Shown piece by piece: positions 12,752-59,904 of a DNA stretch of 64,000 nucleotides; position 1 is the first letter of the stretch; each line of letters opens with the position of its first letter. The position numbers and the translations under genes are program-made. Source of the stretch: Tubiluchus corallicola (Eukaryota > Animalia > Priapulida); assembly GCA_030141605.1 (NCBI GenBank), contig JAQGDQ010000042.1, positions 744,001-808,000 of the forward strand, read 5' to 3'. The notes below the pieces were generated by a model. It was given only the letters and a program-made list of their open reading frames with translations, was not told the DNA's origin and made no database searches.

Positions 12752-12757
12752 AATAAA
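12752..12757 (+). terminator. Candidate polyadenylation signal of the NCoR gene
   Basis: AATAAA followed by T/GT-rich sequence, about 1.3 kb after the stop and before the convergent ALKBH4 3' end. Other AATAAA hexamers also occur in the UTR. Confidence 0.35.
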
Positions 12758-13476
12758 CTGTATGTAAATGAATTCTGAAGTGCTACTTGTTTGTTTTCAA
12801 ACATACAATCATTAGAATGGGAACATGGGCCCCCTGATCACATCAGCATAGATGTATGTTTTCAGAATAACAATATTACATTTTTCCTAATACCATTATA
12901 AATTTTTAAAATTTATTACAATGATCATAACAAATTAACATGCACACAAATTGTACACACATTAAAAATATTATTAGTGTAGTGGGTAAAACTGTAAATG
13001 GCCAACAAGGCTAATTATTCACATTACATTAGTCTGTAGGCCTAGTGATTGATATAAAAAATATAATTCGGTTTCTAATATTTATGTTCCATTAAGCCGT
13101 TTGTATAGTATGGAAAGAATAATTACTGACAAGCTTGAGGATTATGATGAAACAAACATAATAAACGAAGTGAAAAGATTAGACAGTTTGAAAATTTCAA
13201 CAAAATGAGAGCACTTGATGTTAATACTAAATATTTATTGTTACAGTTTACTAATTCTCTCACAGTGTTACTAATTAAGATTTTATGAGTGAGGGGTGGA
13301 TGCTCGGTGACTGTTTGGTCTCTCCACCTGATCTCTCTTGCTAATTATGTAATCCCATATTAGTTTTTGTTATAGTTTTTTATGTAGGAGGCAAAATAAA
13401 TTAAGTTCAATTCAATACAGTAACAAGTAATGGCTGAAAGTTCTGCAATGTTAATTGCAATGTAGCAGAATACATT

Positions 13477-15908: not shown

Positions 15909-16129
15909 AGCGTTTTCTTGAATAAACACCAAACAAATTTTAACCAGAAGAAGACATATTTACACACCTCCAGAAGTTGGCCAATAGAAAACTATGATGT
16001 TTTAGTCAACCAGTGACGGTTATTGTTACATTTGCCACATAACAAGCGTGCCTGCTGTAGAACTGGTAGTAGATTACAAGGAATGCGTATTTGGTTAAAA
16101 TCGAGTTCTAAGTAAAATCTGTTTCTGTT
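15909..16129. promoter_or_regulatory. Bidirectional promoter region ALKBH4 / NDUFAF2
   Basis: Divergent start codons only 221 bp apart (15908 minus, 16130 plus); CCAAT at ~15981. Confidence 0.65.
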
Positions 16130-24286: not shown

Positions 24287-27200
24287 ATGGATAACCATAC
24301 ATTGCCTATAAGAGTTACGGAGATATGCCAAGTAAGCAGCGTTCTTTGTTTTCTTACAATGAAAATTTTGGTTATGATTCTAAATTAAATTTATTCTCTC
24401 TTTTAACTGGGCCCTCTCTACCCTTTCTCTTGCACTTCCTTAACACTTTCCAGTATTATACTTTCTTCTTTCCTATTTTATGCAAATTTTGCATCTAGTT
24501 CTTTATTTCATGATTGCAAATGTCATCGTACATTTGAAGAAATTAACATGGCTATATGATATCTATTTGTCTATTCTAAACTGTAAATAACAACATAAAA
24601 TGAAAATCTGAATAATTGGATATCACCTGAATACTTGAATACGAGGATTAAGAGGCCAGCCTACAGTATGCTTGGTTTTCTTAAATTTTCTTAGAGGTGT
24701 TCTCACTGCAAAAAATTGATAAAATTATTATTATTGTATAAAAAGATTTTGTTAATACAGAATTGAAATTTTTCTTACACAGCATTAAACCTGCAAAGCA
24801 TCATGATGGTACAATTACATATGTATTTTTCAACTTGCGTTTTATTTGTTTGTTTTTTACATGATAGTTATACAGGCCGAAAAACTATGTCAGTCCACGG
24901 AAATTGACAGGTATTTTAGAACAAAAATCTTGGTGCCATCTCTACTATAGTAAATCATCGAATCACTATTTATTTCTTGAAAGCAGATTCGAAAGTGAGA
25001 CGCATTGTATGTTAATGAGCACTTAAAAGACAATCTGCCGTAGTTATTTATCATCAGCAGTTGGACAACTTAAGAGTTTGCTTTAGGCATCAGAGTGCAA
25101 GGAACTCAAAAAACAGTTATGTAGCTAATAGCTCTGAACCGCTATTGGCCTCTAGCAGTAAGTAACGTGCCAGGATCACTGTTTTTCTGCAACACATTAT
25201 GTTCTGGACAAAATTTGATTCTTAAAATTTTTTGTAGAAATTTAGATTAAGATTTTTATGAAGATCTACAGATTATATTATTACTAGAGTTTTATTAGAT
25301 TTCGACGTGTTAGTAGGTGTTTGCTGAATTCTATTATTCAGTCACTGTCATAATTTTGCCATTACCCTTTGCATCAATATTTGAAATTTGCAATGTTTAT
25401 CTTTGTACATTTTTGTGTGGGCTCCCTAATAAGGACCACAGTATGAGTTCTGATTCTGTTTTGTATTACATTTGTTATAATTCTTCCACACATGAAAAAA
25501 TTGTTAGAGCATCTTATAAAGCTGTCATTTCTTTTATGAACAAAACAAAAATATGTGGTATCAGTTCAGTTTTTTGTGCAAATTTGCAAATATAAAAAAG
25601 TTTTCCACATATTTGCTAATGTGTGTTTGCTACATAAATTCGTTACATACTGTAAATAGTAGTTTCCGGTGAGTTTAGAGGTATACTGTAAGTTAACGTG
25701 CTTTTCCAAAGTTGATAATCATCCAGTTACTTACCAAATTTAAGATAAAACGAGATTACAGTCTGTTGCCGAAGACCGATATTTTTTGTTTATTTTGGCA
25801 ATGTAAATTTTCCTCTAAATGATATTTATTTTAAATGGCTGTAAACGTGGAAATGTGAATGTTGTCCAGTGTATACAGCTGCAGAATCTTAAACTTCACA
25901 CAAAAATCATTTGCTTGCAAATCTCGGAATTCCTGCTTTCCATTCCATTATGACAGCTCGGCTAAAGCCTAAATGTGACCTTAGGCCTAAGGCTGTTTCG
26001 TTCTCAGGTTCAATTTTAGTTCGTTTAATAATGTGAATATCTAAGATGACTCTGTGAAAGAAAATTTTAATGTTTAAATAATATTCTGTGCTAATTGCTT
26101 AAACAAAATCTATGAACTACTAGTAATTTAAGGGTAAATTAGGCAGTGACTCTTTGCTGTTTAATATTCCGTACGAATCGTTGACACTGAATTTATTAAC
26201 ATTCTTTACACGTTATATATGTAATGAAATAAAGGGCGTGAGGGTGTAGGTTACCTTAACCAGCTATAGGTGGAGAAACACAAACTCAGCATCCACTTAT
26301 ATTATGTACTAGGACACACTGGCCCTTTACTACGTTTTTAAGGGCATGTACACTACAGCACTGCACCATGTTTTCTGAGGGGCCTGTACGGCTCTGTGCT
26401 ATGTTTTTGAGAGGCATGTATATGTTTCCTTTTCAACCTGCCCCACCCAATCCTCTGTCGCACATTTATTTTAAGGATATTATATTTCCGGAATTCTTCC
26501 GGAAATGTGATGTGTAACTTTTGTCTTCCGGTAAGCTGCTTGCACATTTAGATTTGTATATTACACATTATAAAAGTAATTTAGATTTACGTAATTTTTC
26601 TCCGAAAATGATTTACAAAAATAAACGTTTGCGCTGTGTTCATCGATGATGGGGCTGGTAAACATTGAGTTCTAGCTGTAGCACGAATTGTTCCTCATGC
26701 ATCGCTTATTCCCAAACTACTAAATCATTACACAACTGTATAGTGTAACGACCAGCAATACAATAAGACCTCACTTAAAGAGGATAATGTGTTTTAGCGA
26801 AATGCAACGTCGAGTGATTCATTCTTAAATGAAGCCATGTTGCCCCCTAGGAAAAATAACTGTATGGGGATGGGTTCCCGCTGCATCTGTTTGAAAAATC
26901 AATAATGCTTAGTTCACATAAATCAAGCGTCATTATATAAATGAAGTGTTTGTGTTCATACATTATTTAATACGTCCAGCCAGTACCGTGTCAGTACTAG
27001 TACCCAGCCAGACCATGTTCTTGTCTAGAGAAATAAAAATCCTATAGTTAATTTCGTCATGACTAGCGATATCTCCTGATGTTCTTCTTGAATCAGGTAA
27101 AATTATAGCTTTCAGGAAAACATTTTTCTGATAGAGAATTTCACAGATAAGAGGCCTGAGAGAAAACTGGAATTATAAGTACTGTTTTGTATTTATGGAT

Positions 27201-30200
27201 GCTTAGGGTGTAAGACTATGAGAAAACATGAGTACTATGACCAAACTGTTGGCATTTAGGAACCAGTGAGGAGAGGTTCTGAGGCGTCTTCCATAAAAGT
27301 CGCGATAAAAAGGTTTAATATAGCAAGTGGCCTTCAGACCTTGTAGCAACTATTCTGTTTCCCACGAATTGAATACAAATGAATCCCTAGTGAACTCACT
27401 TCCTCAGAAAAGTCTATATGTTATACCGTCGCTAAATAAAGCCATTCAGTTTGAATGCTCTCTTCCTGCTTATGTGACCTGAAATTCGTGGCCAAATGTC
27501 ACGTTAGGAATTTCTTGTGCAATTTCTAAACTAAAAATGTGGATTATTTTCTTGTGTTATCATTCTGGTCTCAAGGAGATATTAGTCCCTACTGTATTAT
27601 ATAATTAGGCAAAATACATGTGGTGGTGGTGGTTTTAGTGCATCGAGAAACATTACTTAATTGTAGGATCTAAAAATTGCTGATAGCTGTAAATGACTTT
27701 AACGCGACAACAAAACTCTTTTTTAATAGTCTTGAAATTAAATACTATATTTTGAATTGTATAGATATTAGTTCGCAGTAGAGGTTTCTCTGTACTCATG
27801 AATTCGTTGGGGATTCTGGAACTTAGGGACTCCAGACTCTTTGTAGTCGTCGGTAAATTCCTCTGAAAGTATGTTTCATTCCTGGTCATACAGGCACTTT
27901 GGAACTACTATAATCTTGTGCCATTTATAACTAAATGTCGCTATACTTTCATACGTGTGTAAAATTTTCAACATTTTGTGAACAAAAATACTTTCAGGAA
28001 AAGTATTCACATTATACACTTTATTTCACATACTATATTGTCTATTAGACTGTGTATATCAGATTTTATTAGATTAGAATATATATAATTCTGTTTGCGC
28101 GCTTTGGTACGTTTTTTTACTAAAATTATGACAGTTCTGAATGGCCTATATTGTACAAATTACCAATTTCCATGAAATCATTATAATTTAGTATCTCGGA
28201 AAATTAATATTGATTTCTATGGGCTAAAAGAAAAGACCGGTCGTATTTTTAGTTTTATAATTAATACCAGTTACAAAAAAGACGCAGCAACTCGTGACCT
28301 GCTTCCGTTCCATGTTCTTTTTAGACGTTAAATTCCTAAAAGAAATGAATCGCGGTTTGTTCACTAGCGAAAATGCTTTAGTGTTTCTTTAGGTCACGTA
28401 CACACTACGTTGAAGAGTAAATTATATGGTAAAAGTGAAACTGAAGTAATTGGAGATAATGACAGTTTGTCAGGCTAGCAATGGCGGTATGCTTGGTACG
28501 TTTCATGACAGTGAAATGAACGTGATATGGTAAAGTACCTGTGGCATTCTATAATAGAGCTGCAGAACTAGAAATTTCTGTCTTTTTCAAAGTTGGTCGA
28601 GATCTGCTGATGTCTGCTGCACCTGACTTGCTATTTGACTTAACATTGAAACTTGCTTGACTAATATATTAGCAGCTGACATTGTAACAATGTATTTGTG
28701 GCGTTGCTGTCGGCTTATACCATCAAATCAAATAGTGAAAACTCTTGAGTGTCAGCTATTCTGTTTATTTTTACTTTACGAGGTGCATCTAGTTACAGCA
28801 TTCCAGGCAAACTAGGAACTGAACTAAGCATGGTAAAGTTATTATGGTAAATAAGTTTGTCTTGTCCTTAAATTTTGTTGCCGGAAAGTTTGTGACACAT
28901 ATTCTTAAAACGGTTGTGTTTCGAATCTGTAGAAAGTTGAAGTCCATGGCCACTCTCATGTTCTATCTCTAGACACGCAAGCTTCAGCCTGACTGGCTTC
29001 AGCAACGTCTGTATAAATAGCTGGCTAGATTAAATTTGTGATAAATATCTTGCGTCATGGCAGCTGACAAAATATGTTGTTTATTTAATATTTACTGGTT
29101 GCGAGTCGGTACAGTACATCTCTGCAAATTTCTTTGTTCTTTTTAAGTTAATTATAATGTGCTACTATCACTTTCTTTTGAATTCATGTACTTTCTAGTG
29201 TTATGTTTGTTTGGTATAATGGTATAATGTTGTGCATGCTGCGGTTGCTTGTCCTTTGTGTCCAATCAAATTCATTAAATCATTTGACATAATAATTATA
29301 ACACTATAGTTACAATATTTATTATTAAGCCATTGCACCTTGTTGTTTGAGCTTAATAAATCAAGCGATACCACAAATACAAATACTTACTTGTAGTGGT
29401 GGTTTAGGATAAGGAATTTAGGCCTAACTATTTGCTATTTGGTGTTAAATTTCTCAGATAACGTCCATGGCATTTGCGAATTAAATAAGTCAAAATGGAC
29501 TCATAGTTTCCTCAGCTTTTAATAGTTCATGTTCTGTGCACTGCGTTGCATTCCATTGCATTAGGCAATAATGTGTCAGTTTTCAGTTCTCCAACCTGTC
29601 AGTTTCATTATGTTTTCGCATTTGAATTAATGGTCCTTGATAAAATTTCTTATGGTGTGGGTGCGCTGGTTAATTCGTTTGTTCTGTGAATTCATCACTG
29701 TGGTTCACGGGGTCGAATTGTCAAATTTCCTGGAGGCGTGTAGATGCGATTAAGATAAGGGCGCCTTACAGAGCGAATGTGAATATTCAAGTCTTAATAA
29801 CATAAATAATGGCAAATCTGAGCACATTATAGCACATTTTTAATTTTCTTTGTTGCATTTTTTAAATATAACAGAAAGCTTTCATGGATTCCTTCAAATT
29901 ATGGTAATCTGAAATTATGAACTGTATATAAAATTACAACTTTAAATTATTTTGATAATTGAAAATCAGGCTTTCACATTGTTGTAAGCACAAATCAATG
30001 ATCTTCTTTTACCATTTTACTTGATGTACCGAATGTAATAATTTATCTTTTATTGCTGTGTGTCAGCTAACAAGTAATTGTACATGGACCATTAGTAGCA
30101 GAAAAAGAAAATTGATGATGGCAGTGGCACTCGATTCCACGTTTAATTAGATTTTTTGCTGCAAATTTATAAAATTGATTTTTTGTCTAGGTAACTTGAC

Positions 30201-32918
30201 TGACATATCAATTTAGGTTATAATACGTGTTAATAACTCAGCACAATACAAATTGCCTGCAGATAGAATTTAACCTTTGTAAGTTTTGTATGTTGTCTGT
30301 TTTGATTCACTGACCACTTAAACTAGAATGCGCTAAGATATGTAGCTCAAAGTTTTTTGGCCTTGTTTAAGTAAACTTATAATTTGAAATCATCTTGACC
30401 TCTATTTATGTTGACCGCGTTTGAGTTATTGATCTTGTGCATACGTAGCTGTAGTTTGTGTCCTAAATGCCGGTATTATGCTTAGAAAATAAGACACGGT
30501 AATGCATTCGCTAAGAAGCACTTTGAAAAATGGGTGTCAAACGGTCAGTTTAAGTGCTCGCCTGACGATGCTATGGCTAGTTATTTAATAGTTTAGCAAA
30601 TGTGTATCACTGGGACTGTGCTGCTACGGTGCTTTTCTTCTCTGTGAGCTATACTTTTTGAGCCGTTTTGCCATATTTGGGGCCTCCCATGCAATTACAG
30701 TATTTCAAAATGGTCATGTTGGTCGAATAAAAAAAAATAAACAAAAAAGTTTGAAGTTTTTGAAGTTTGTCTTTTTAATTGTCAACGTGCTTCTTAGCGA
30801 AGGCATTACCGTGACTTATTTTCTCTGCATACTACGGGCAAACTACAGCTACTTATCTAGGTGTAAATAATATAATTAAAAATAAAAATATTAAACATAG
30901 GCCTATATGTATATGAATTATTTCATTACAATATTGTAACAGTCTCCACCTCATCTACCTGAAAAAAATTGAAGAAGTAGCCATTGCATAACAAGTGACA
31001 GTTTTTTTATACGTATTTCTGCACGACTTAGTGATCATTTCATCATTTCTTCAATTGTTCTGATAAAGCTACACAATTATACTGCACATGGTTTCATAGT
31101 GAAATATTCGAACTTGTTTCTTATTTACAAAACGTGTATCTATTTCCACCAAAATTACCAAATATATTTAGTTCATTTTTACACGCGGACACATGCGTTT
31201 AAATATTATGTAAATACACAAAATTTTCGAAGTTACTAGATGCAAATCATCCATGTAGATTAATCGGTTACGTGCATCCTATATATACTGATCAGCTGTG
31301 ATATCGCTTAGCTCAAAAGTTCCTCCACGATTGGACTTGTTTGTATAAAATTAAGTAAATGTGAGAGAGAGGAGCTCTCGCTCTCTGTGAAGAGCTGTTA
31401 GCTTGGCTGATTAAATATCTGCGCCGCGTAATGAATCCGCTAATATTGGCTTCGTTAATTGCTATTCATAGAGCGTGTAAACATGGTGCACGTCTTGAAC
31501 TCTGGCTGTACTAGGCTTTAATAGTTCTCTGCTTAGTGTGACTAGGTAGGGCATACGAAGAGCATTTGTCATTAATTAACCCCTGACGGAGAGTCATTGT
31601 TACCATCTTAAAGGATTTTGAAACGGGTGTAATAGGTAGCACCTTTTTTCATTTGTTGTTGTGACAATGTTTCTGCAATTATCATTATTATTCATTTTTT
31701 TCGTACTACAACAGATACAGCCATATATACATATACACAAAATGTAACAAGGAATAGTTAGTATAAACACACAAAAAAGAAAGAAGTTAGTATACATATC
31801 ATTATTTTTCACTTATCCTTCACAGATAATCTTATAATAAGCATTAATGACTAATTTTTTAACATTCACATTACCAAATCTTAAAGATAAGCGTTAACCT
31901 AAAGATTTAGAACCCTTACTTTTAATCATAATTTATTCTCATTATTTTAACGCATGATATTGTAACGTGTAATTTTAGTGTGTAATTTACTAATTAAAAT
32001 TGTCGTTTTAAAATTATTTAAAGATAAGCCATACATTCTTCTTAAGTGACAATGACTATCGTTAGTTAAATACAACATTAACTGAATATTATCGATGCTG
32101 GAGTTAAAAAACGATTTATTTACAAACCCTTTTATGTAAAAGAGATTCAAACGATTTTAGAATTTTCCAAATAGTACGATGTTTTTAGCAAGTCTGATTT
32201 ATAATTATTTGTATATAGAGTGTTTTTAGTGTAACAGACAGTTTAAATGTAGTTACATATAAAACCTTTTAAAATGTAACTTTATGTATTTCAATATATC
32301 ACAGTTTAAATTATTTTCTGTAACTCCTAATTTTAATCATAGTTTACTTTTGTAATTTTATTGTATATAAATATGTGTACTTTTAGTATGTGATTATGCT
32401 TGATGCACCTGAAAAATTTTCGAACCGTTAATTTTAATCGTAATTTATTCTCATTACGATATTGTAATGTGGAATTTTAGTGTGTAATTTGCTTATTTAA
32501 AATTGTCACTTTTAATCTTACTAATCGCATGGACCATTATGGAAACGTTGTTTACACGTAATTTTAACGTGTTCTTGCAAAAAATAAATTTCTATCTATC
32601 TATCTATCACAACTAATTCTCAAAATTTGCTTGAGTATATAGTTTGTCTCGATATCACGTTTTATTGCATTTGCTAGTTTCGGTTGTTCCTGGGTCATTG
32701 TTCATTGGGACAGCTATCGTTCGTTGCAGTTGTTGATGTGCATCAAAAGAAAAAAAACTGGAAATTTTTATTGTCACCAACTCAAACAAGTGCCCTGGGC
32801 GATCTAAAGTTAATTAGAAAACATTCTGCCTTGGGCTTTCTAAAATTTTAAAGCAGTTAACAAAACTAGGTTAACACGTAAGTAACGGAAGTTTCTGAGA
32901 CGACTTATTTCACGTTAC

Positions 32919-32976
<58 letters not shown>

Positions 32977-35900
32977 CTCCCCCCCTCTCTCTCTCCTCTC
33001 TCTTTCTCGGGTAGGTAGTGCCCCTGCTGCTTATGTCTATTTCGGCAAAACAAGAAAACTTTTTTTGGGAGCGAAATTTGTATGATTTATAAAAAATGCC
33101 TTTAAAAAACTAGATGACTAACGAAGAACATTTTTGTAACGTTTGGGCACAATTCTAAGAAATATGCGTAGCTATATATCTGAGCACCAGCTCTAATATA
33201 GTTGTGGCTACGTTGATATTCAACAGGAAACCATTGCATTCTAATAACCTTGTAGTAAAAGCGAGCACAAGAGTTGTTCAAACGAATATCCGACCGTTTC
33301 TACTATCTAATATTATTCTAGATCATTTCATAGCTTTTTTCCGAAATTCTTTCTTGTAATTTTGATAATATCAGTGAAGCCGTGGAATGGATAATTATCT
33401 TCCTACCGGGATAATCATTCGATGGCTCGCTGGTAAATACCACTTTAGCTTATCTGTCAACCGTAGAAGACTGTTAGCATGTTGTACGACAAATAATCCT
33501 ATACTGATATCGATCACTGAGTCAGCAAATTATAGAGTGGTAATAGAATCGGTTCCTTGGAAATCGCCGCTTCTTTAAAAGATGTAACTTCAGTCTGAAA
33601 GTAATGTAATTAGTTTTTTACTGGATTATTCATTTAACCTAGTATAAGTTCATGATTTTTTTCCTTTGTCATGCGCCGACACCTTTAGGTTTTAACTTAT
33701 ATGTGCTAAGCTTCAGTGTTATCCCGGCGATAATATTGTATAGTTATGACTACCATGCAGCCTGCCATCATATGAAATCAACGTGATCTTTGATCAAATT
33801 ACCAAGTAGAATTCTATTTAAATCTATGCATATACATATTATATGCAGTATATATATATATATATATATACCATACGTCAAGGTAAAAGAGAAGATTACC
33901 TACCAAACATGAAAAGAGACTATTATTTTATTCTGTCATTGGCTATTCAGTAGAATTTTAATTCGCATGCATCGAAGCTTAAATAGAATCATCGCTAATA
34001 AAAGTAATTATCGTAAGGGTAAGAGTCACGGTTAGCTGTCAAATATGAACGAATAAAGTCAGGTTTATCTCATTCTAGCCTTTAGCTTCAGTATATTGTT
34101 CTTATCATCTAAATTAACATTGATAAATGATTATATTAGTGTAGGATGAATAAATTCTACTGTTTGATAACAATAAGTTAAACCTTGCCTCAGGCGCACG
34201 GATATTGCAATGTCACTATAGTAAAAGTTCAATACTTGCAGCGATTTTTCTCGTTATTTGAACAGTTTAACTTAAAGGAACCTGTAGGACAATTTCCAGT
34301 TTACTACCGAATTTTTATATAAATGTTTATTGTACATGTGGTTTGACGCTGACAGCATTTTAATTCAGACATTTGAGCTGTTTTAATGTACGCGCGTACT
34401 TTACAGACGCGAACGATGCATGGGTGGTAGTATTTGTAAAAACATGTTCACATGTAGGTGTGTTGTGAGAAAGTTTACTAATAAATCCTATTACGTCGCG
34501 CCCTATCTTAAGATGATTGCCTGCGAGCGCCATAAATTTAAATGCCTAATTATTCTAATGCTCAATCGTGGCTGTAGTTATTGCAGTATCAGGTAGGTAG
34601 TCTTTATGAATGAAAGACTGGTGGTTAATTTCCAAGGAGGTGTTACTTTACGTTGTAATGTGGGCCAAAAGACGTTATTTTTGCTTGCATTTGACTTTGC
34701 GACTTACTATTGCATGAAATTTGTCTAATGACCTCGTGAAGGAACAGAACTGACTTTCTGTTTTGTTAGAAGAGGAGACAAATTAGCTAAAGCCGTATCG
34801 TAAAGGTAGATAAGAAGGTTATGTGCACTATGTGCGAATCTGTGCCAAGAAACCTGTAATATTTAATGCTGTAATTAAATAATTAATGCTTTGTACTTAC
34901 GTATCTACAAATGGATATTTTACATGTAGTAAACGACACATAGACAGCATTGCAATCTGTGGTTTGGTTTAGTTGGTAATATTAGTTAATAAATGGCATT
35001 CTATATAATCGTGTGTATGTAGCATAATGCGTATATATACAATCAGCTTTTGTATCTAACTAGTTCGAAATTCTGAGGAAAATACGAACCGCAAGCAATA
35101 AGCTAGTAACATAATCATCAGTTCCTTGTATTTGTATTTGTGAAGCAAATAATTTCTGCTACTTTGCTGAACTGATTTGTGCTGGGGGGAGGCTAATTAA
35201 TTTGTCAGTCTGAAAAAATCGATAGGTGGATATATGTTCCTTCTATTTGTGAAATGCCCATTCACATGTATGCCCATATTCATCTATAGCTCTGTGAGTT
35301 GCAATAGTTCTATCTTAACAAATACATAGTTATTCACGAAGTATTTTAGTGGGCACATTATATAAATGTATAACAGCCACTTGCACCACTTCAAGCAAAA
35401 CTTCTACCCCCGCTGTTGGAACATGTGTAGGGCGTTTACTCGCATCTGTCTGTGTATTCAAATGTAATTATATAATAAATAACGTAATCCCTTTATAGTC
35501 TCGATGATTACGTATTTTTATTTCAGAATCATTCACCTTGGCGGCCCTCATCAGCTCAAAAAATTACAGATAAATTGTTCAGATGAGGGCCGCTGGGCTG
35601 AAAATTTCGGAAATAAAAATATATAATCATTGAGACTATAAGGGGCATTACGTTTTTTATGCTAAAGATGACAAGTCTCAGGCGAGCTCTCGCTCAAATA
35701 TTTTAAGTCCTATGAATTAATAAATATATTATTTGAAACACTAGTAGCGGGATAGGTGGCTCCGACTGCCATTACTAAAGTGAAATGATTTAGCTGTTAC
35801 TAGGTTTGTCATGTTGTTCAGTAGCTCACATGGTAGAGCGTGTGAAATGTAATCACAAGTTCTGACGTCAAATCCTAGGTGATCCACAATTTTTCAACGC

Positions 35901-38900
35901 CTCTTTTGTTCAATTAATTAGCTATAATTGTCGAAAGCGTAGTATCTGTTAATGTGTCTGTTCGCACTGATTATCAAAGATGGTGAAGCTATATTCACCG
36001 TATTCCGCACAGGAATAGGTCTAAGCAAGAGATGGAAATCTGTTAAGTTTGGGTTCAATAAGCCAGAGATCAAGGTCACAAGATCAAAAAAATGACTGTA
36101 AAACCAAATTAGTTAAAATAGCGTAAAATTATCAAAATTGACACAGGGATAGATCTGGGTCAGACCGGAAAACCCAAGTGTTGTTTTTTCGTTCAGAGTC
36201 AAAGGTCAAGGTCATACGTTTTCGTCTAGAGATTTTAAATCAAAGGATTGAAGGCATGGGCCTGCACTTGTATTGAGGACCCTCATGTTAGTCAGCTATA
36301 TTGTATGGCCATTTTTTTCAGTTACGCAATGTTGGAGTTCCAATAGAGCATGTGACATGGCCGCGTGTGACACTATCATCAGATGGGTGGATATGTGTAC
36401 GACACTGCAAGCATCCCCATATGGCTGGTGTGTGTCCTCAATGTGTTGCACGTCGTCGTGCCGGCAGTAACGGCAGTTCAGGCAGTAGTGGTAGTGGAAA
36501 TGGTGCTATCAGACCTTCCTCCTTCAGGTATTTTACACACCTGATATTTGAAATTATAAATGTGTGTTTAGTTACTTGAATAGTTAGAGTGACTGTTAAA
36601 CTTCTATTGCTTTGAACGGGTTATTTCAAAATTTTGATATTCTTTATTTGTAAACTATTACGACTAGCTTTAATAACCTCTTTTCATAATTTTTAGCAGA
36701 ATTCTATTGTATATGTTGTGGTTGTCACATTTTTTAAAAAAGTATAAAGTCGTATTGATCTACACAGCTTAATTTTTTGCTGTGCCTCCCTTTTAAAGCC
36801 TTCCTTATAATCAATGATTAACTCACTGGAATATAAATCATTTAAACTAAATTGAAAAATGTCTTGTATCTAACTGCAAATGATTGTGTTTTATTGAGTT
36901 GTTACAGTCTGTTCTTAAATCACCACACAGATTAGAGGCATTTTCTGTTTATTTTTAAAACAACTTATCCCCGTACACTAGCTGAGCTGTGCAGTGAATG
37001 TTTTTATTTGTTGCACTTTAATAATCCCCAATATATAACTGTGCAAGCTTCTGACCTAGGTTAAAAGCTTAAGCAGTTTTTTAGCAGTGACAGTCAATTA
37101 AACTGAATAGAGCATCATAAATGAAAATCGAAGTGTGTGGAGAAAGAAAACAATGAACTATTTGTTCTACCTCTATGGTTTATTCATCAATGAGCTTTTT
37201 GATTTTATTTTAATAATTTTTATTAGATCCTTTACTGCACATTTTGATGAATTTTATAGGAAATCATTGTCTTTGGAAAGAACCCGAAGTCGGAGTAGCT
37301 CCAGATCCCCTGCACGTCGCATGTACGCTTCCACGACGTCTTCCAATGGCACAAGTAGTTCCAGCAGTAATGGTCTTTCGTCGTCCACGTCATCATCCAC
37401 TTCCTCATCTAGTTCTGCTCGCAGCCTCCGCGAGAAACTACAGTGTCGACTAACTTTGCTCAACCTACATTTAGGAGGAACGCCACTAAAATGGAGTGCC
37501 ATTGCTGATTCAGTGCGCAAAAACCCTGTCCGGCCATGGCTAGCTCTGAAAGGTAATAACTGTAAAGAATGTCGTATTTTATTTTGTAATGTTAGCGTAG
37601 TAGAGTTCTCAAACATACTGGTGTGACAGCTCAGCTATCGGGAATCTCTGTCCACATCTTGAAAGATATTCAGATAGAATACTATGCAGCTGTACTGCAT
37701 TTTTTGATACATCTACCATTTTGGGATAACATGAGATAAAATATTCTTGGCTTGTCTGGAGAATATAGCACGCTGGATGATGTTACAAAAAAATTGAATT
37801 TAGACTGCCATCTTTTGTATTCTGGTTGATTAAAACTTAAAGTTGTGCACTGATTGTCTGTAACTGCTTTCCAAAATATTTCTGACCCTTTCAGTTATAT
37901 GGCATAGAAAGGACTAAGTACATTTTACGTTTGCTATGAGCGCCCAGAATTGGAGAATAGACTGAGTTTGTTGTTTTTCTAAACCTATGCTAGATCTGCT
38001 AGTGTGAATTAGACATAACAATAGTCTCGAAAGCTGATATGACGAGTTTATCTCTTTGTATGTTTGTAGCTGGATTTCATATAGAAGTGTATGACATGGA
38101 TTCCCGTGCACTACTGCGCAAGCACAAATGTGCAATGTCTGTGATATTTTGGGCGTGGGCAAGTCCTGACGTCATCGCCTTAGTGTCTGAGATGGACGTT
38201 TATCATTGGCATCTTACCAAAGGTATGCAGTAGTGCAGTTTCTTCTTGTTGTGTATTTTTAACATTTGGTCCGTCACAGTTGTGAAATAGACTCAAAAGT
38301 GCTTCCAACTTTACATTTCTCTTTAATTTTTTGTCTCCATATTTCTACTAAATCAGGAGAAACTTCTCAAAAACAGTCTCAGTTGCCTATTTGAATTGAT
38401 CTTAGCCGTTCCTGTCTTAATTGTGACTGGCCAGTGACACTTGGTCATTTCTTCTCTATGCTCATTTGGCAGAGGGGAACTTTAAGGTGGTTAAGTCACC
38501 AATTTAGTTTAATAATATGTTATTACCACAGCAATTTTCTAAGCACTACTCTGGGTGGATAGGTTAACAAACATGGAACTGAATGCTATGCAATTGCTTA
38601 ACTTATCAGGATAGATGAAATATATCATTCTTTCACTCTGTGAATGACTTCAAGATGTTAAAATACTGTCATTATCATGCACTGAATGGTGTATCATGTG
38701 CTAATTTATCATGACTGGGCTCACTGAAAGTAAGTAAAATACTTGGCTGTCTGACTAAAATGTGTCATGTGTCTTTTTATGTGTATGCCAGGATAATGTG
38801 TGTGTAAGCTAGGTAGCATTTGTACTGAATATAACTTATTCATGGTATTAGTTATTTATTACCTCTCTACTGGTTTAAGATCTCACTTAGAGGTTAATCA

Positions 38901-41900
38901 TTGATAATTGATTAGGTTCCATTCCACTTACAAATAAGTAGAAGTGCTGGATACTACCTCACAGTAAGTCAAACTGTAAAAAAAGAAAAGGTTGTTTAAC
39001 CTTTATGCTGATAATTAGGCTGGCTATACTGTCATATGCATGGGTTGCATTAACGCCATTACCTGTTAATACTTGTAATCATCCAAAACGTTAATAATCC
39101 AGAAAACAGCCTCTAATTGACTGCAGCTACCATGCGTTTACCATTAGTTGTAGCTGCCATGATTTGTGCAGCATGTCAGGTTAGTACATAGGAGTTTAGG
39201 GGGGGACCTGCCTGGCTTTGAAAAACTTGTTATTGCAAACAGACATTTTAATTTTCTTCATTCGTTCGAGATCTTTATTAGGCAGTCATTCACTATCTAT
39301 AACTTTCTTGTTCTAGGCTCAGATGTGCCACAGAAAGTCTTTGGTCGTCACAGCCGGTTACGATATTCAGAAATAGTGAACTATGCTGCAGATGATAAGC
39401 TTCAGTGGCTTGCCCTTGTGGGACTGTTGCAGAACTACGTAAGCATAATTGATATTTTAATGTCAAAATGCTTAATCTTTCCATACCAAGGAAACTTCTA
39501 GTTTTACAATCTGTTTATATGTTTTAGAATCCAGGACAAGGCTCAACTAATGACATAGTGATGAAATGTCAAGATGGATCAATTTTACAATTTGTAAATT
39601 ACTTGTTGGATATTGCTATAATATGGCTTGTATCACTTTAGATACATTCTTGTAATGACACTGTGACAATTTTGTTTGCATATCCATTTCCTAAGTTTCT
39701 AGGTCTTCATATACCTCGTGTACATTTATTGTAATGCATGGAAGTAATTTGCTATAGAAGCAGTTAAGCATTTGGAGAGTTTAGTTTATATATTGAATGT
39801 ATATAAGAACTGTTCCATTTGGTTAGTTGAGATTTCAGTCCTATTTTGAGCATAATGACATATTGATCTTACTTATAAATCTGAAAAATAGGGGAAGTAG
39901 AATGGCACATCTTTAAGTTATGGAGCCATTGCTTTAGATCTGTTTGTTTATTTCATTGTTCATTTACTAAACACATTTACTGTAATGCTGAAGCACATGT
40001 ATTTAGCAACAGCCCCCCCCTTTATGTTGGTATCTCCAACACCTACATCCTGGTAAGCTCCTGGTTGCTCTTTGCCTAAGCTTGCTTGATGTAACCACTC
40101 ATATTTTGAACAGTTACTGTACATTTGTTAATATAGAGTATTTAACGAAGTTGCTCTTTATCTAACTTCTAGGACAACGAAATTCAAGGCATAATTCAGA
40201 TATATTCAGTTTGTCAGAATCTTAGTCAAATGATTGAAGGACATAGCATTTGTTTTACCCGATATAAATTTGACGGCAACCGTCACTCGTCAACAGTCAT
40301 GTGTTTAGCATCCCGAGGTGCCAATAATATGGGAAAGGTAAACATTTTAAGTTCTAGTTTATGTAAGATTTTTGTTTCAAAAACTTAATAACTGATATTA
40401 TATTGACTCTATATTGTCTTTGTAGTATCTTTATATCGTATGATAATTATATGTTTATACTGATTTTGTTCTTTTTTGATTTTATATAGGTTGTTAGGCT
40501 ATACAATGTCAAAATACATTAAATTTCCATTGTGCATGTTTTTTTGATAAGCAAAAACTAGCCATCTGACTAGGGCCTAACACCTTGTCCTGATTGGTCT
40601 TTAGCTTGCTGTTTTAAGTGCATCTTTTAAATGTTTCTCTATCTACTACTGAGTATGCGTGTATCTACTATGGACCCACTTGACAATTGTTAATTTGTGC
40701 AAATATGGAACAAGCTTTTCTAAACATGCATTAATCAGTGCACTAACAGAAAATGTGTAAGTATTGTTATTTAGTATAAGATTACTTTCTACCTCTAATG
40801 CAAAGTAGGTAAAAACCACTCCGTTCTCCATGCATGTGATGTGTTGTATTTTGCTATGTTATCATGTTCTTACACATATGTTTTGACATATTTGTCTTTT
40901 AAGGGTATTTTATTGTTTTAGTATCACTGATCTTGCCATTTTAGATTCATGTTGTTGAGATGGGACCACACATTATAGGAAACTGTGCCTTAACGAATTA
41001 CTCAGAATCTCTTCATTATCCCGAAAGGGAGGCATCCCAATATGACTTTCCAGTGTCAATACAAGTAGGTGCTTAAGCCATAATTTTGCGGTGTTTATGA
41101 CTTCGGCGACTGTCTGAAAATTTCTATGTCTGGCTGTTGCCAAACATGTGAAAAAAACAGTCGTAAAGTTGTCTGAATGTTCGTCAAACTTTCGCAATAC
41201 GTCAACAATTTCAAAATCCGCAAAAATTTAGAGAACATCATGTGATGCTTTTAAGAATGTTGCCACAACTTTGCGAATATTTTTCAACCTTACGACGTTT
41301 TCGCGAAGTTTGGTTGCCTCGCACTTCTCACAGTGACAATTCTATGAAATTTATTTATCGCGCAGTGATCGCAGTATACTCGCTCAATTGTTGTGCGTTC
41401 GCCTTGTTGCATAAGTGTCGCTGAAGTCACCCAAACATATTGCCTAAATTTCCAGCGATATTCTCACATTTTCGCTGCAGAAAAAAGCTTGGAATTTGCA
41501 AGAATGTGGCGAACATTGCACATATAATTTGTGACGCAACATAGTTGCAGGAATTTTTTGGCGACTGTGGGACAAAGATGAGATGTATAATCAAAGGAAG
41601 GAGTTTACAATTCCCCACACAATTTACATACCCCAACTTTAACCTTAACGTTAACGCTAACCTCAACCCAACCCTGACCCTAATTGTATTCTGCTTCACA
41701 AACTAATTTGTTGTGTGTGGGGAATTGTGAATTTTAGGTTAATCAAATAATGCAATAATGCAATGTTGGATTCTGTAATTCACTGACATTTCAGTGATTT
41801 GGACACGTAACAATGACTTTTTCATTAGTTTTCATAATGTCTGTTGAGCTTTTGATTACCGCAATATTCAATTGTCCATCTAATCATATTAATTGTATAA

Positions 41901-42786
41901 TTTTTAGGTGAGCAATAGGACCCGGTTAATCTACATTGTAACAAAGTATGGTCATTTGTTCTTATGTGAGTTAGAGACTGGACTTTGTTTATGTCGCACG
42001 CAAATTAGTACAGATCTCGTGTTTGCAGCGCAAGTGAATCGTGATACACAAGGACTGGTTGCTGTCAGTAGGAATGGATTGGTATTTATTACAGTTATAT
42101 CTTATCCAAGTATAGCAAGTAACCAGTTAAATATTTTTTTAATTTCACTAAAGTTTCGCTATATGGCTGTAGACTATAATGAAGTAACATTGTCATGTCC
42201 TTTATTGAAGGAATCCAGGATTTGTCATTTTATGAAATTCATTTATCTTTTCAAGTACAGCAAGTAACCACATTTTGCTATATTGCTGTGGACTACAACG
42301 AAACTACTCGGTTGTGTAAGGATTTGTCAATATTCCTTATAAATTCTTGACGTTAAAATTTTGTCAGATGTGGTTTGAAAATTCTATATTACTGTGAGCT
42401 GGCTTAAAATAATTTGTAAAAAATGAAAGAATTAGCCAATGATTGTGCAAGATAATGGATCCACACTTTGATAGATTGTTTATTGTTTCATACCATATCA
42501 TTGTATTTTGCACTAATGTTTTTCACTGCAAATTCAGCAATGAAGTAATAAAGTTTTATGAATGTTGCATTTGTGAGTTACAATCATAAGCATTACTGCA
42601 CAGTTTATGTTGTATTTTGAACATCTGCAGCGTAGCAACAATAATTGATGTCGCAGTCAATGCATTTTATTTTTGTAGGTATTTGCAGTTGATATAAAAT
42701 ACGAGCTAATAATTGAATATATCAACAGTATTCTCAAGAAACCTGCACTTGCTGGTCGAATGAAGTCCTACATGGCAGTGTTTTAA
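24287..42786 (+). CDS. Clathrin heavy chain N-terminal (beta-propeller) domain-only protein, 9 exons, ~472 aa (461 with the alternative acceptor)
   Basis: Exons 24287-24331, 36322-36527, 37227(or 37260)-37552, 38070-38222, 39317-39438, 40173-40337, 40945-41064, 41908-42081, 42679-42786 (TAA); 1419 nt with no internal stop. Collinear with clathrin heavy chain residues ~1-358: LPIRVTEICQ|LRNVGV..DGWICVR, ADSVRKNP..LALK|AG, VIFWAW..VYHW, FGRHSRL..IVNY..QWLALVG, QIYSV..SQMIEGH, K|IHVVEMG..DFPVSIQ|, IVTKYGHLFLCELETGLCL, SRNGL|VFAV..IIEYINSILKKPALAGRM. Confidence 0.9.
31920..32520. repeat. Dispersed direct repeat (~90 bp x2) in AT-rich intronic DNA
   Basis: tttaatc(a/g)taatttattctcatta..gatattgtaa.gtg.aattttagtgtgtaattt..aaaattgtc at ~31920-32010 and ~32432-32515. 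Confidence 0.7.
32920..33008. repeat. (CT)n microsatellite / polypyrimidine tract
   Basis: Long tc dinucleotide run with a few interruptions. Confidence 0.95.
33849..33870. repeat. (TA)n microsatellite
   Basis: Uninterrupted ta run. Confidence 0.9.
35481..35654. repeat. Foldback / long imperfect inverted repeat (MITE-like)
   Basis: Left arm aacgtaatccctttatagtctcgatgatta...gcggccctcatc pairs with right arm gatgagggccgc...taatcattgagactataaggggcattacgtt; arms ~72 bp, spacer ~29 bp. Confidence 0.88.
35815..35886 (+). pseudogene. Degenerate tRNA-like sequence (Thr-TGT-like pseudogene or SINE head)
   Basis: A-box TAGCTCACATGGTAGAGC, perfect anticodon stem TGTGA/TCACA around loop AATGTAA, degenerate B-box GTCAAATCC, downstream T-run. 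Acceptor and T stems pair poorly and U33 is lost, so it is unlikely to be functional. Confidence 0.6.
41607..41728. repeat. Small element with 15-bp inverted ends enclosing degenerate (TAACCC)-like hexamers
   Basis: acaattccccacaca (41607-41621) is the exact reverse complement of tgtgtggggaattgt (41714-41728). Interior reads taacct taacgt taacgc taacct caaccc aaccc tgaccc taa. Confidence 0.75.
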
Positions 42787-42920: not shown

Positions 42921-43137
42921 AGACATTGCACAATGGTTGCAGTCTGGTTGTAGACATTACAGTGGTCGCAGTCTGGTTCTAGACATTACACAATGGTTGC
43001 AGTCTGGTTCTAGACATTATGCCATAGTTGCAATCTGGTTCCAGACATTACACAATGTGTGCAGTCTGGTTCTAGACATTACACAATGGTTGCTGTCTGG
43101 TTCTAGACGTTACACAATGGGTGCAATCTGGTTCTAG
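42921..43137 (+). repeat. Minisatellite, 7 copies of a 31-bp unit
   Basis: Consensus agacattacacaatggttgcagtctggttct; units start at 42921, 42952, 42981, 43012, 43043, 43074, 43105. There are no unique spacers. Confidence 0.95.
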
Positions 43138-44870
43138 CTTGAAGTCACCTGATTGGTAGATAAATTAGCAGCAATTTAGCTAGAGTTTTAACAGATTACT
43201 GATCTTTGCCATAATAACCTTTGTGTTGAACTGGAATTTTATTAAATGACAAAATTGGTCAAAGATAGCTACTTTTGTCAGTTTTAAAACAGTTCAAAAT
43301 GAAATTTAATGTAGTTGAAATACAGTTGGTTATTAATTATTTATTAGCATTGAAATTGACTAATTGTAGGTGAAACAAAACCTTATATAAAAATGCTGAG
43401 CCAACACATAATGATCATCTCCGTAACATTTATTATGTTGTTTATACGTGCAGTTGCTGTAGGTCAAAGGTTGAGTGAACCCAGCTCGTCTTACTTAACT
43501 ACAACGGTCACGTGACCTTATGCACGTAACTACATGTAGATGAAACAGGTGAACCACGCGGTTGTTTTTATTATATACTACAGGTGTACAGTTTTGAACT
43601 AACAAGTTATTCTTATCCAAAAATAACTAGCAAAATAATAGCAGCAGTCCATGTAAAATGAAATAAATGAAGCAAAAACTAATGCCAATAACTGTTACTA
43701 TTACAATAGCGTGGGCTATGAGGCATTGTCAAATGTAAACTAATATTTGGTTCAGACAACATTGTTAAATTCACTAAATCTTTGACGTTTTCACGATCAT
43801 CACCAATCGCTTGAACTGTGAAAAGGCTTGTTACAAAGTGGCATTATCAGTATGACTTGTCAACATAGCGAAAGATTGAAGTGTCAGATGAAGACGTGGT
43901 GCAATAAGTATGTTGAGGGTTATCATTAAGTGGACTTTGTTTTTGGTATTTATTTAGACTTCTTCCTCTTTCTTCTTTTCTTTTTTACTATTACTATATC
44001 TTTTAACATATAGATGCACCCAAGTAATTATGTATGATTCATTGTACATGTTTGTGTCTTAGTATTTTTACATAAACACTTTATTGTGCTGTTACAATTA
44101 TAACTTGCCAAAAGTTGTTTTCTTTTAATATACTGTAATATTATAATGATAATAATTTGTGAGTTAGTAAATTATAAGTCATTTATATGTGTGTATTCAT
44201 ATTTTGTTTTCCCATGAAAAAGTAATGTAATAAGGAAGGAATAGTTCATAGAACTTTTAAAGCGCAAATGGAAATTTAGCCCTAATTTTTTATTAAATAT
44301 ATGTGACCATGGTGTTACAGTTCATGCGATGGTTTTATATGAATTAAGCTGAATCTTGTAATCGTGTATTATTAAAGTGTCAAAATGATGACTTAAGACT
44401 AATGTCGCTCTACACCAAATTTTATTTTGTCTGTATGACACCATCTGTGCCAAATTTGTAATATTAACTTCATTAAACATTTTGATATGGTTTGCTGTTT
44501 TATACTCATGCTGTATGCTAGCTACTTGTTGGTAATAATTTTGAATTTCATCTTTGGTTATATCTGCTAAACTTCACTGATCATGTGTTGATTTTATTGT
44601 TGTGTGCCAAATCCAAGTGTATGTAAAACCTGGAAAGACACACCAGTACTATATGGCAGCCGTGTTAAGTTTACAGTGCTCTTGCTGGGCACTGTAAACG
44701 AAGGAGATTTTGAGATTAGTATGAAAGTTACTTTACCTCTCGACTAAAATTGTAGTGCATACTCACTCTCTTTTGATACTGACCAGTTTGTGTAAATCAC
44801 GTTTTTATGTTGGTTGAAATGTAATAGTTCGAAGGTTGGCTGTTTAGAGTAGGCCTATACTTAAATATAC

Positions 44871-47524: not shown

Positions 47525-50500
47525 TCAAAAATGTTGCCAATCATAGGATAGTAAGTTAGCGTTTGATTCAATACAATGGGCTATTTCCTGCGGGATACGA
47601 TGCTGCAGCCAGATTGAATGCAACTTCTTGTAGCGCTGCTCGTCTAAATGAAGAGGATTTCCACGTCGAAGAAGCCTGTCTGTTTCACCATAGCTGTCGA
47701 GATATGGTGGCGGGTAGAAGCACCCTTTAGTTCTCCCAGATAGCAAGAGGACTTGACACTGCCTGACCATAAGGAAAATTCCAATACTTGCACCACACGA
47801 GTGTGCATGGTAAGTACATGCACCCACAGGAGTCTTGTCTATCTCTGCTTGACAACAATAACTCTGAGAACACAACATCTCGCCACATATTAAACACATA
47901 GTTGGTACTCGACTGTCATCCCTGTCAGAATTTGGGCAAGTAAATACAGCCGCTTGATTTATAAGTTCACTATAATCATGCGGAAGAGAAACCAGTTGAC
48001 TGACTGAGAGGGGATACTCGACAAAACTGCTACTACCTGCTCCCTTCAGAACGGCAGCTATTCGAGGATGACCGCACCACTTTGTAACCAAACTATTGAC
48101 TAAATTTCTATCTTCGAGTAACTTTGTAAATGACTGGGGCAAAGACAGGTATGCAGAAATAGTCTCAAACTCACTACTGGAGACTTCAGTCAGTAATTTA
48201 GGTGCTTGAACATTGGTAAGGAAATGAAAGAAAATGGCTGCAGTCCTGAGAAATGGACAACAGGCTGATTTCACCTGGCGAACCAACTCTACACCTGTTG
48301 GAACCATTGTGGGTTTGATACCACAAACTGCACAGACAGTTGCATATAATTCCTGGAGAACAATGCCATCTCTTGCCTCTTTCTCAGAAGAATATGTGAT
48401 TTGTTTTGGAGGTTTTAAGAAAGTAGGGTTCACTTCCATTCTATCAACAGTAGACACCTGGCTTGATGCTTGAACAACAATTGTTTGGACTATATGAGCC
48501 AGAAATGCAAGATGCAGAATACTTTTCTCATTAATTCGACCACAAGGTACCGACTTCAGTGATTGTCTACCTCCTTCTGCATATAAGGCAGGCAGAGCAA
48601 AAACAACACTGACTAGATAACTAAAGAAATCAATAGATAAGATACATGGAGTATCGTCAGCTGTTCCTGTTCCGCCGAGGATAGATAATAACTGAATGCA
48701 GTGACTCTTCAGTATATCCAGGTCAACAATATGGCTGATGACTGCACCTGTTCTCACCACAGCACTTAAGCAATCACCATGACGCATTGAAAAAGCGCCA
48801 AGTAGTGGCTTTCTTTCGTTACGTAAATGCCATTCAAGAGATTGTATTGTAAAAGCACAAGTTGACCATACTGCTACTGGGACTCGTGGATTGTCACGAT
48901 GTGGCAAAGCATCGAGTCCAATTGTATAAGCTGCCTGGGCATATATTTGCAACATATCTACAATATTTTTAGACAGTTCCCAATTCCTTGCAGCCTCAGC
49001 ATCCAACACGTAGTGAAACAACTGTCGCACATTATCAGCAACACTGTCTTTCAATAGTTTGCACACAGCAGACAATGTATCGGGTACAAACAAGTCAAAC
49101 TCTTCACCTGGCGTGTCTGTTGACTCCGTAGTATGTTTAACAGTTCTACAAGACACAATAGTCTTATCCAACACATCCAACCAATCACTCATGTTTAATT
49201 CAGACGTTTCAGTACTGTACGATGCCAGTACTGACAAAGGTGGCAATAAGGGAATTACAGTATTGCTTAAGTTTTCACACAATGGGCACAAAAACTCGTT
49301 TTTATCTACTTCAAAACACAACTGATGTCGCAATCGTAACGGCCGTCGCCTCTCTTTGGCTACAATAGAATCAAAGTACTTTTGCCAACACTCTGCATGC
49401 ATGACATGTCCACATGTGCCAGTGTGAGTTCCACATGCTAAATCGGCAGGCATGAATAAAGGATTATACTCCATTCGTTCATGTGTTGCTCTCCTACATG
49501 ACTTAGACATGACTGTTGACTTCTGAACATATGCTGCAAGTACCATAGCTGGACCATCTGGTTTGATATTTGTTGTTTCTTGGCACAGAATACATATCCC
49601 TTGCTCACTTGAAATAGTTGGGTTTGTCTTATGAATGCCAATAGCTATTGGAAAGTCAACTTGTACATCCATATTACTCATGTCAACTTCAGAACTCACG
49701 GGAGTTAACTCAGTGTGAGTATTATCAAACAGTTCCTTATTTTCTTTGATAAAATTCTTTTGCATTGCTGACATTTGAGCTAAGATCTTTTGACGTCTTT
49801 GTGCTGCTAATTTGGCCCTCTGTTTTTGCTCTGACTCACATGCCTGAGTTTTCTTTTGAACTTCAGAACCTAATTGTATTACATCCAGCGACTGAAATTC
49901 AGTGCTCTGCAACTTACTTACATGATTAAACATCCGTATTACCCATGCAAGAAGTTGTGAATGTGCTTTACCATGTGCGTGGTCGACTAGTTGCTCCAGA
50001 AGTTTAAAGACATCCTTTTCCAAAGCTCGTCTGACAAAAGAGATGCGATATTCTTCCTTTTCTTCAATCTGTCGTTTTTCTTCTTGCAGGGCTAATCCGA
50101 CTAAGTGCAGCACTCTGTGGAGCTGAGGTTCTGAAAAGGACCTAGCTAATCGCATTGTTGCACGACTTAATACAGTTTGCATAATCAAGAGCATAATATC
50201 ACAATGTAGCAATTCATTTATATTCTCGAACTCAGTGGTGAAAGGAGGAGGAACTGGGGGTGGACTACCTTCCTCTTCAGAATTTGTTTTCTGTCTTTTC
50301 CTCTGAGTCTCTTCAGATTTTGACTGATCAGATCGAGTGTAGTGAAAGAAGAATGGATTGTACAATTTGTACCAGTCTTGTTTAAGCTCATACATTCCTT
50401 TCACTGATCCTTGGGGCTTTTTAAAGCAAGCAACATCATTGATAACTTCTTCCAGCCCCGTCTCATAATGGTTGTTCTCTGGCAAGGACTTTGTAAGTTC

Positions 50501-59834: not shown

Positions 59835-59904
59835 TAGACATTTACAATAGCTCATTTAGCAAAAAAATGATGAAAAAATAAACTCAGCTGTCCACAATTC
59901 AGTT

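Follow-up and report, generated by a model that had tools for sequence, protein, structure and literature searches.

Few coat proteins have been studied as well as clathrin, whose terminal domain is familiar as one segment of a heavy chain of 1670 residues; without the legs or the trimerisation domain no triskelion can form. A further protein, CLHC1, carries a coiled coil and a Clathrin_H_link region and has no propeller. The heavy-chain paralog CHC22 (CLTCL1) is full length and confined to jawed vertebrates, where, according to the available text of PMC6548504, it has been kept in some lineages and lost in others. Here we analyse a 64,000-nucleotide (nt) stretch of DNA from the priapulid Tubiluchus corallicola (GCA_030141605.1, contig JAQGDQ010000042.1, positions 744,001-808,000, forward strand), hereafter the window, which holds a gene that we call mini-clathrin. 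Its product spans the clathrin terminal propeller and the two helices behind it, and then meets a stop codon. We conclude that it is almost certainly an old, functional, stand-alone clathrin paralog, and that it belongs to a bilaterian clade of paralogs made of the terminal domain only, which is defined here.

A terminal-domain-only clathrin family

Mini-clathrin occupies 24287-42786 on the + strand. When its nine exons were joined by their coordinates, all eight introns had GT-AG ends and the coding sequence of 1419 nt gave 472 amino acids (aa), with one stop at codon 473 and no internal stop, bearing out the canonically spliced, uninterrupted frame of about 472 aa in a preliminary description of this DNA. 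That description also held the protein to be collinear with clathrin from its start to about residue 358; this is correct for the propeller and the two helices, but needs qualifying for an insert of about 100 residues (aa 44-148). Exon 6 by itself has solved clathrin terminal domains among its matches at E 1e-9, as does exon 8 at 6e-8, and 111 of 333 aligned residues are identical between the window protein and a vertebrate CLTC fragment.

Leg sequence was sought with a profile of everything past residue 358, through the C-terminus, built from 54 full-length clathrins (the named ones fungal or protist). Against six frames of the window the best match had an E of only 1.5, and with the matching terminal-domain profile eight exons of the nine came up at E<5, five of them at E<0.01. 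The window contains no N letters, and a complete, convergent UBR1/2-type open reading frame (ORF) lies 4.7 kb downstream; the earlier statement that no leg exons precede this gene therefore stands. As judged from the profile scan of the window and the stop at codon 473, mini-clathrin lacks the Clathrin_H_link region, heavy-chain repeats, trimerisation domain, light-chain segment and length of about 1670 aa of a clathrin heavy chain.

With exon 8 as query there were 2 candidates, of which one was a relative, a 347-aa protein of Priapulus caudatus labelled 'clathrin heavy chain 2-like'. With this protein as query, and confined to proteins of 190-608 aa, a further search gave 33 matches among 4402 candidates, from gastropods, bivalves, a chiton, a nemertean and spiders. 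When a profile was run over 1.84 billion representatives, with no length limit and with 20 of the best 150 matches looked up for names, it added at least horseshoe crabs, scorpions, mites, the centipede Strigamia, the brachiopod Lingula, the annelids Owenia and Ridgeia, the hemichordate Glandiceps, the echinoderms Antedon and Strongylocentrotus, three lampreys, two caecilians, the turtle Chelonia and a gecko. Orthologs in other invertebrates, for which a search had been suggested, were thus found, and vertebrate members as well. None of the members that were named, in searches not built to show absence, belongs to the mammals, birds, bony fishes, insects, nematodes or non-bilaterians; the lack of named members from mammals, insects and nematodes would explain why the family has been overlooked.

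Among the matches listed, relatives are mostly 360-430 aa long and share an end point, and some sit on contigs of tens to hundreds of Mb. The stop falls within a few residues of the same helix in 24 of 25 aligned proteins; only one short Priapulus isoform departs from this, and the last exon is present in its sister isoform. A local fragment of one genome is ruled out by these relatives with a shared stop across phyla. Scoring of 254 proteins and the window model classed 93 as family-like and 160 as clathrin-like and left 2 unclear; isoforms and near-copies are counted among the 93, of which 25 built the family profile. None of the 93 exceeded 1 bit with the leg profile, in contrast to 99 of the 160 clathrin-like sequences, which exceeded 30 bits, so that the lack of a leg or trimerisation domain reported for the window extends to the family-like sequences. 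The window protein itself scored 473 bits with the family profile versus 304 with the clathrin profile, and matches the family exactly at 13 of 15 diagnostic columns.

Tails past the last helix are short, except in Owenia (695 residues) and two unnamed proteins (113). The extension of the Owenia fusiformis member (P0052) is of low complexity, has no Pfam match, and may be genuine or stem from a gene-model fusion. Longer fused forms were also sought, and of 30 matches among 5854 candidates 29 had clathrin leg domains and one was the Owenia member, which is weak evidence.

The fold was modelled on a nemertean member, which was folded with a 25-row alignment and stands in for the window protein and its insert. 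The model (predicted local distance difference test score 88, predicted template modelling score 0.88) is a propeller closed by two helices (351-361 and 365-377), and its one disordered loop, 47-60, lies at the place of the insert in the Tubiluchus gene. Its best structural matches in Foldseek are clathrin terminal domains (template modelling score 0.87-0.89, root-mean-square deviation about 2.2 A, 32% identity), and the ESM Atlas model of the Priapulus protein agrees with a propeller fold. The family profile aligns over clathrin residues 5-351, and PF01394 is present in 24 of 25 relatives; PF09268 was matched in none of the 25 members at E 0.1, although the profile alignment reaches the linker-core helices. 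The family stops just short of where Pfam Clathrin_H_link starts in clathrins (residue 356-358). Pfam and PDB matches, the relative's model and the profile all give a seven-blade propeller followed by linker-core helices (about residues 331-354).

A tree was built under LG+C20+F+G4 from 52 rows (the window protein, 29 of 92 family-like sequences chosen for spread, and 22 other clathrins) and 357 columns. The short family forms one side of a branch with support of 100/100 and a stem of 0.92 changes per site, and a quick tree agrees. The window protein is sister to the Priapulus protein (100/100; 52% identity), and within the family molluscs, vertebrates, ambulacrarians and chelicerates each cluster. 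The tree does not place the family among the clathrins or fix its deep order, and a clade of the family with presumed animal clathrins was not rejected (approximately unbiased test, p 0.36). Because members occur in both protostomes and deuterostomes, the family would have arisen no later than their common ancestor. The view that this is an old paralog under selection is supported by a clade that spans protostomes as well as lampreys, amphibians and reptiles.

Six of the eight introns lie at what we take to be intron positions of human CLTC (after residues 14, 83/84, 173, 227, 265 and 323), and several database models of relatives (P0001, P0021, P0031 and P0083) break at the same points. These presumed CLTC introns and the breaks in the relatives' models point to a partial duplication at the DNA level rather than a retrocopy.

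Adaptor-binding sites

We compared identity to the vertebrate residue at the adaptor-binding sites of 46 family members and 28 other clathrins, with residues 87, 89, 91, 96, 98, 152, 154, 164, 183, 188 and 192 and the Royle-box set taken from the available parts of PMC5182127 and PMC7041688. Over the whole domain identity was 0.34 in the family versus 0.47 in other clathrins. The corresponding values were 0.68 versus 0.75 for the arrestin box (8 positions), 0.36 versus 0.62 for the clathrin box, 0.30 versus 0.52 for the Royle box and 0.09 versus 0.86 for the W-box.

Within the arrestin box, W164 is found in 46/46 members, Q192 in 45/46 and I194 in 42/46. The W-box carries replacements that recur across the family, namely F27 to W (33/46), Q152 to E (31/46) and I154 to V (41/46), with L at 170. 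A lysine or arginine stands at position 29 in 41/42 members versus 0/26 clathrins, and at position 147 in 44/46 versus 1/28. The rim of the clathrin box shows the opposite pattern, with Lys/Arg at 98 in 1/45 members versus 22/28 clathrins and at 64 in 0/46 versus 17/28, and the floor positions 80, 82 and 91 remain hydrophobic. At the level of sequence the arrestin box is kept, the Royle box is partly kept, and the W-box and the clathrin-box rim are replaced; the W-box is fixed on other residues (W27, E152, V154 and L170) rather than decayed.

A C-terminal [ST]x[VIL] end was present in 21 of the 82 family sequences that reach the last helix versus none of 54 full-length clathrins. Its carriers are arachnids and unnamed look-alikes, lampreys, caecilians, Glandiceps and Haliotis.

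Gene structure, insert and neighbouring genes

The nine exons of mini-clathrin, with what each encodes and what supports it, are as follows.

Exon 1, 24287..24331, + strand: aa 1-15, start codon and N-terminal propeller strand, phase-0 donor; family-matrix score, junction without an RNA contig.
Exon 2, 36322..36527, + strand: aa 16-84, opening of blade 1 (family motif TWxRV) and of the insert; family profile E 1e-11.
Exon 3, 37227..37552 (or from 37260), + strand: remainder of the insert, end of blade 1 and start of blade 2; run X2 contig over 37277-37446.
Exon 4, 38070..38222, + strand: propeller, clathrin-box positions 87-98; profile E 6e-17.
Exon 5, 39317..39438, + strand: propeller, W-box positions 152/154 and W164; a run X2 contig joins it to exon 6.
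Exon 6, 40173..40337, + strand: propeller, arrestin-box positions 183-194; PDB match and run X2 contig.
Exon 7, 40945..41064, + strand: propeller, region of the family motif ELGP..GN.A; profile E 3e-12.
Exon 8, 41908..42081, + strand: propeller, clathrin residues about 266-323; PDB match.
Exon 9, 42679..42786, + strand: last strand, two linker-core helices and stop; family profile E 0.005, with a matching end in Priapulus isoform X1.

Intron 1 is 11,990 nt long, placing exon 1 about 12 kb upstream of exon 2. The ten open codons ahead of each GT site between 19000 and 36300 were therefore scored with the family matrix, and the exon 1 donor at 24332 ranked first of 529 sites, with 15.2 bits versus 6.0 for the runner-up. 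Exon 3 has two in-frame acceptors, 37227 (472 aa) and 37260 (461 aa), either of which is possible. Intron 1 also holds two inverted-repeat pairs, 35489-35645 and 30468-30840 (71 nt at 79%, 62 nt at 87%), which are probably small mobile elements, and a 31-nt unit is repeated in tandem at 42928-43168, about 140 nt past the stop codon and possibly in the 3' untranslated region.

Among runs recorded as RNA none contains the stretch; transcript evidence came from run X2, which was assigned by its species label, is probably RNA, and derives from a slightly different individual or a relative. A 201-nt X2 contig covers 39317-39425 and 40173-40248, with 13 letters between them that are the rest of exon 5; it thus skips intron 5 at the predicted GT..AG. 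The RNA check of the junctions that had been called for is positive for exons 5/6, that is for one junction of the eight, in one run. A second X2 contig covers part of exon 3 (37277-37446), and 6 of the 8 codon differences listed between X2 and the window are synonymous.

The insert (36406..37419, + strand) spans intron 2 and is rich in serine and glycine, with 35 Ser, 12 Arg and 3 Asp/Glu among its 105 aa. It sits in the blade-1 loop, which has 8 residues in vertebrate clathrin and 4-11 in 28 clathrins; in relatives the loop has 10-18 residues in 38 of 44 and up to 74 in a mite, and in the window protein 105-116. An RS-rich stretch of the insert contains a SPAR motif that is also present in Priapulus, and the insert and the Priapulus N-terminus look alike by eye; BLAST gave no alignment between them. 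As far as these sequences indicate, the insert is special to the Tubiluchus gene and in part common to Priapulus. At its start (36403-36444, + strand) three His and three Cys fall within 14 residues, a cluster that was not seen in relatives and that could bind zinc.

The convergent UBR1/2-type N-recognin gene (47525-52918, - strand) is one uninterrupted ORF of 1797 codons with zf-UBR, ClpS, winged-helix and PRT6_C domains. It may be a retrocopy, because it is a single ORF amid intron-rich adjoining genes and animal UBR1/2 genes usually have dozens of exons. The other neighbours, at about 900-19000 and 59900-61830, include, on the + strand, a large Myb/SANT-domain gene that we take to be NCoR-like and a gene with no Pfam match that is presumably NDUFAF2-like. 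On the - strand lie a 2OG-Fe(II) oxygenase, which we take to be ALKBH4-like, and a methyltransferase. Rfam gave no match in the window.

Possible functions and relation to described clathrins

We propose that the family arose by partial duplication of a clathrin heavy-chain gene before the protostome/deuterostome split, and that the legless propeller works as a stand-alone peptide-binding adaptor with two sites and a new partner, to which we assign a probability of about one half. Through the blade 4/5 groove (arrestin box) the protein would go on binding short leucine-rich motifs in trafficking proteins, and the central cleft (W-box), rebuilt with near-invariant arginines at 29 and 147, would take another motif, acidic or phosphorylated. 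One clathrin-type ligand would thereby be tied to a new partner, with no cage being built. A C-terminal [ST]x[VL] end might be a PDZ anchor in arachnids, lampreys, caecilians and a hemichordate, and the serine-rich loop of the Tubiluchus protein may be a phosphorylation-regulated add-on. The two-site arrangement is favoured because one groove has been kept and one conserved centre has been rebuilt. In its fullest form, which we offer tentatively and think doubtful as a whole, the proposal would be of a further, unrecognised bilaterian gene of the clathrin-heavy-chain family, with an age above about 550 million years and an apparent absence from mammals, insects and nematodes, in which one groove reads adaptor motifs and an arginine-lined centre reads a phosphorylated motif, coupling signalling to coat traffic.

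Several points weigh against the two-site adaptor. Positions 27, 64, 80, 82, 170, 185, 191, 194 and 229 are ones that we take to be site positions, and positions 29 and 147 would face the central cleft on the strength of their closeness in the sequence to W-box residues. The W-box changes are chemically mild (F to W, I to V and I to L). Beside the arrestin box R188 and K245 have also been lost (Lys/Arg in 6/46 and 3/45), and the conservation of W164 and I194 may serve folding. The [ST]x[VIL] end occurs in only 21 of the 82 sequences, clustered in few lineages, and not in the window protein, and the folded model is that of a relative without the window protein's insert.

A possible but clearly less probable alternative is a soluble decoy, which would use the kept arrestin-box groove to compete with clathrin for adaptor motifs, thereby damping coat assembly. 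This groove is the best-kept site and the clathrin-box floor is still hydrophobic, and the available part of PMC5182127 states that clathrin-box motifs also bind the arrestin box and that one working site is enough for transferrin uptake. A decoy would, however, be expected to keep all adaptor sites equally, yet two bear family-wide replacements, and a monomer would lack the avidity of a lattice. Because a monomeric terminal domain captures adaptor peptide far less than a dimerised one (available part of PMC5182127), a simple decoy role is weakened unless the protein oligomerises. The preliminary description had left the choice between a decoy and a repurposed scaffold; with two of the four sites replaced and peptide captured poorly by the monomer, the scaffold fits better and the decoy is less favoured, though the arrestin box is kept. 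We think it unlikely that the protein has instead assumed a task of the terminal domain outside endocytosis, for example the recruitment of spindle proteins in mitosis or meiosis. On the spindle, GTSE1 binds sites 1 and 3 of clathrin, according to the available part of PMC7041688, and site 3 is the one kept in the family, but site 1 is altered. The CDK-type (cyclin-dependent kinase) SPAR motif is common to Tubiluchus and Priapulus, but it lies in an insert that most members, with their short blade-1 loops, lack. The TACC3 anchor, moreover, needs residues beyond the propeller, and these are missing in the short family.

The family ends just ahead of the start of Clathrin_H_link, as would half of a split clathrin-like gene whose product pairs with a separate linker/solenoid protein such as CLHC1. 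We hold this to be improbable, as CLHC1 is kept in mammals, from which our searches brought up no family member, no CLHC1 cluster is among the matches listed for an atlas search by linker region, and a search of the literature gave no related title. Identity with CLHC1 itself is ruled out, as the protein has the propeller and no PF13838 region. It is scarcely credible that the gene is a pseudogene, that it results from mis-assembly or that it is the 5' part of some longer clathrin gene. Transcript-like contigs cover one junction of eight and no 3' end, and the Owenia member does run on; but the frame is open over nine exons, the stop is common across phyla, relatives sit on contigs of tens to hundreds of Mb, neither the window nor the family has a leg, and the downstream neighbour is intact.

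No description of the family was found in the open-access literature (titles and starts of abstracts; subscription journals not covered). Its members in databases, among them XP_014673515.1 from Priapulus, XP_050410049.1 from Patella, XP_013398554.1 from Lingula, XP_032823741.1 from Petromyzon, XP_030065525.1 from Microcaecilia and XP_043404192.1 from Chelonia, carry automatic labels, namely 'clathrin heavy chain 1-like / 2-like' or, in UniRef, 'Clathrin heavy chain linker core motif domain-containing protein'. The same labels are also put on true clathrins and fragments, and Pfam has no model of its own for the short family. The earlier remark that no named family has this architecture is consistent with these labels and with the literature, and the family is real, old and apparently undescribed. 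With it one can test directly how the terminal domain acts in the absence of a cage, and why there are four peptide sites, of which one is kept here and two are rebuilt.

Two other kinds of protein resemble the family in keeping the propeller and losing the legs. The Glandiceps talaboti protein P0099 (XP_078000561.1) has the terminal domain and Clathrin_H_link followed by SH3, without heavy-chain repeats, and Pristionchus P0030 (as also the nematode-type P0097 and P0103) has a propeller followed by a low-complexity, probably coiled-coil tail. Both the Glandiceps and the Pristionchus proteins lie outside the clade and are probably separate, younger truncations; the clathrin propeller has therefore been reused more than once.

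The family resembles CHC22 in being a heavy-chain paralog that some lineages have retained and others have lost. Unlike CHC22, it consists of the terminal domain only and is also found in lampreys and invertebrates. The lamprey is said in the available part of PMC6548504 to possess just one gene that encodes CHC; Petromyzon nonetheless has a 376-aa member of the short family, and the supplements of that paper might list short sequences that were set aside. The closest likeness is to the terminal domain (1-363) of CHC17 (CLTC; PDB 1utc, 5m5r and 2xzg), with which the family has in common the propeller, the two helices and the arrestin-box groove. It differs from CHC17 in evolving far faster, in a longer blade-1 loop, in the replaced W-box and clathrin-box rim, and in having no Clathrin_H_link, repeats, light-chain site or trimerisation domain. 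Mini-clathrin and its relatives are thus natural proteins that end almost exactly where crystallographers cut their 1-363 fragment, and they have been kept in protostomes and deuterostomes.

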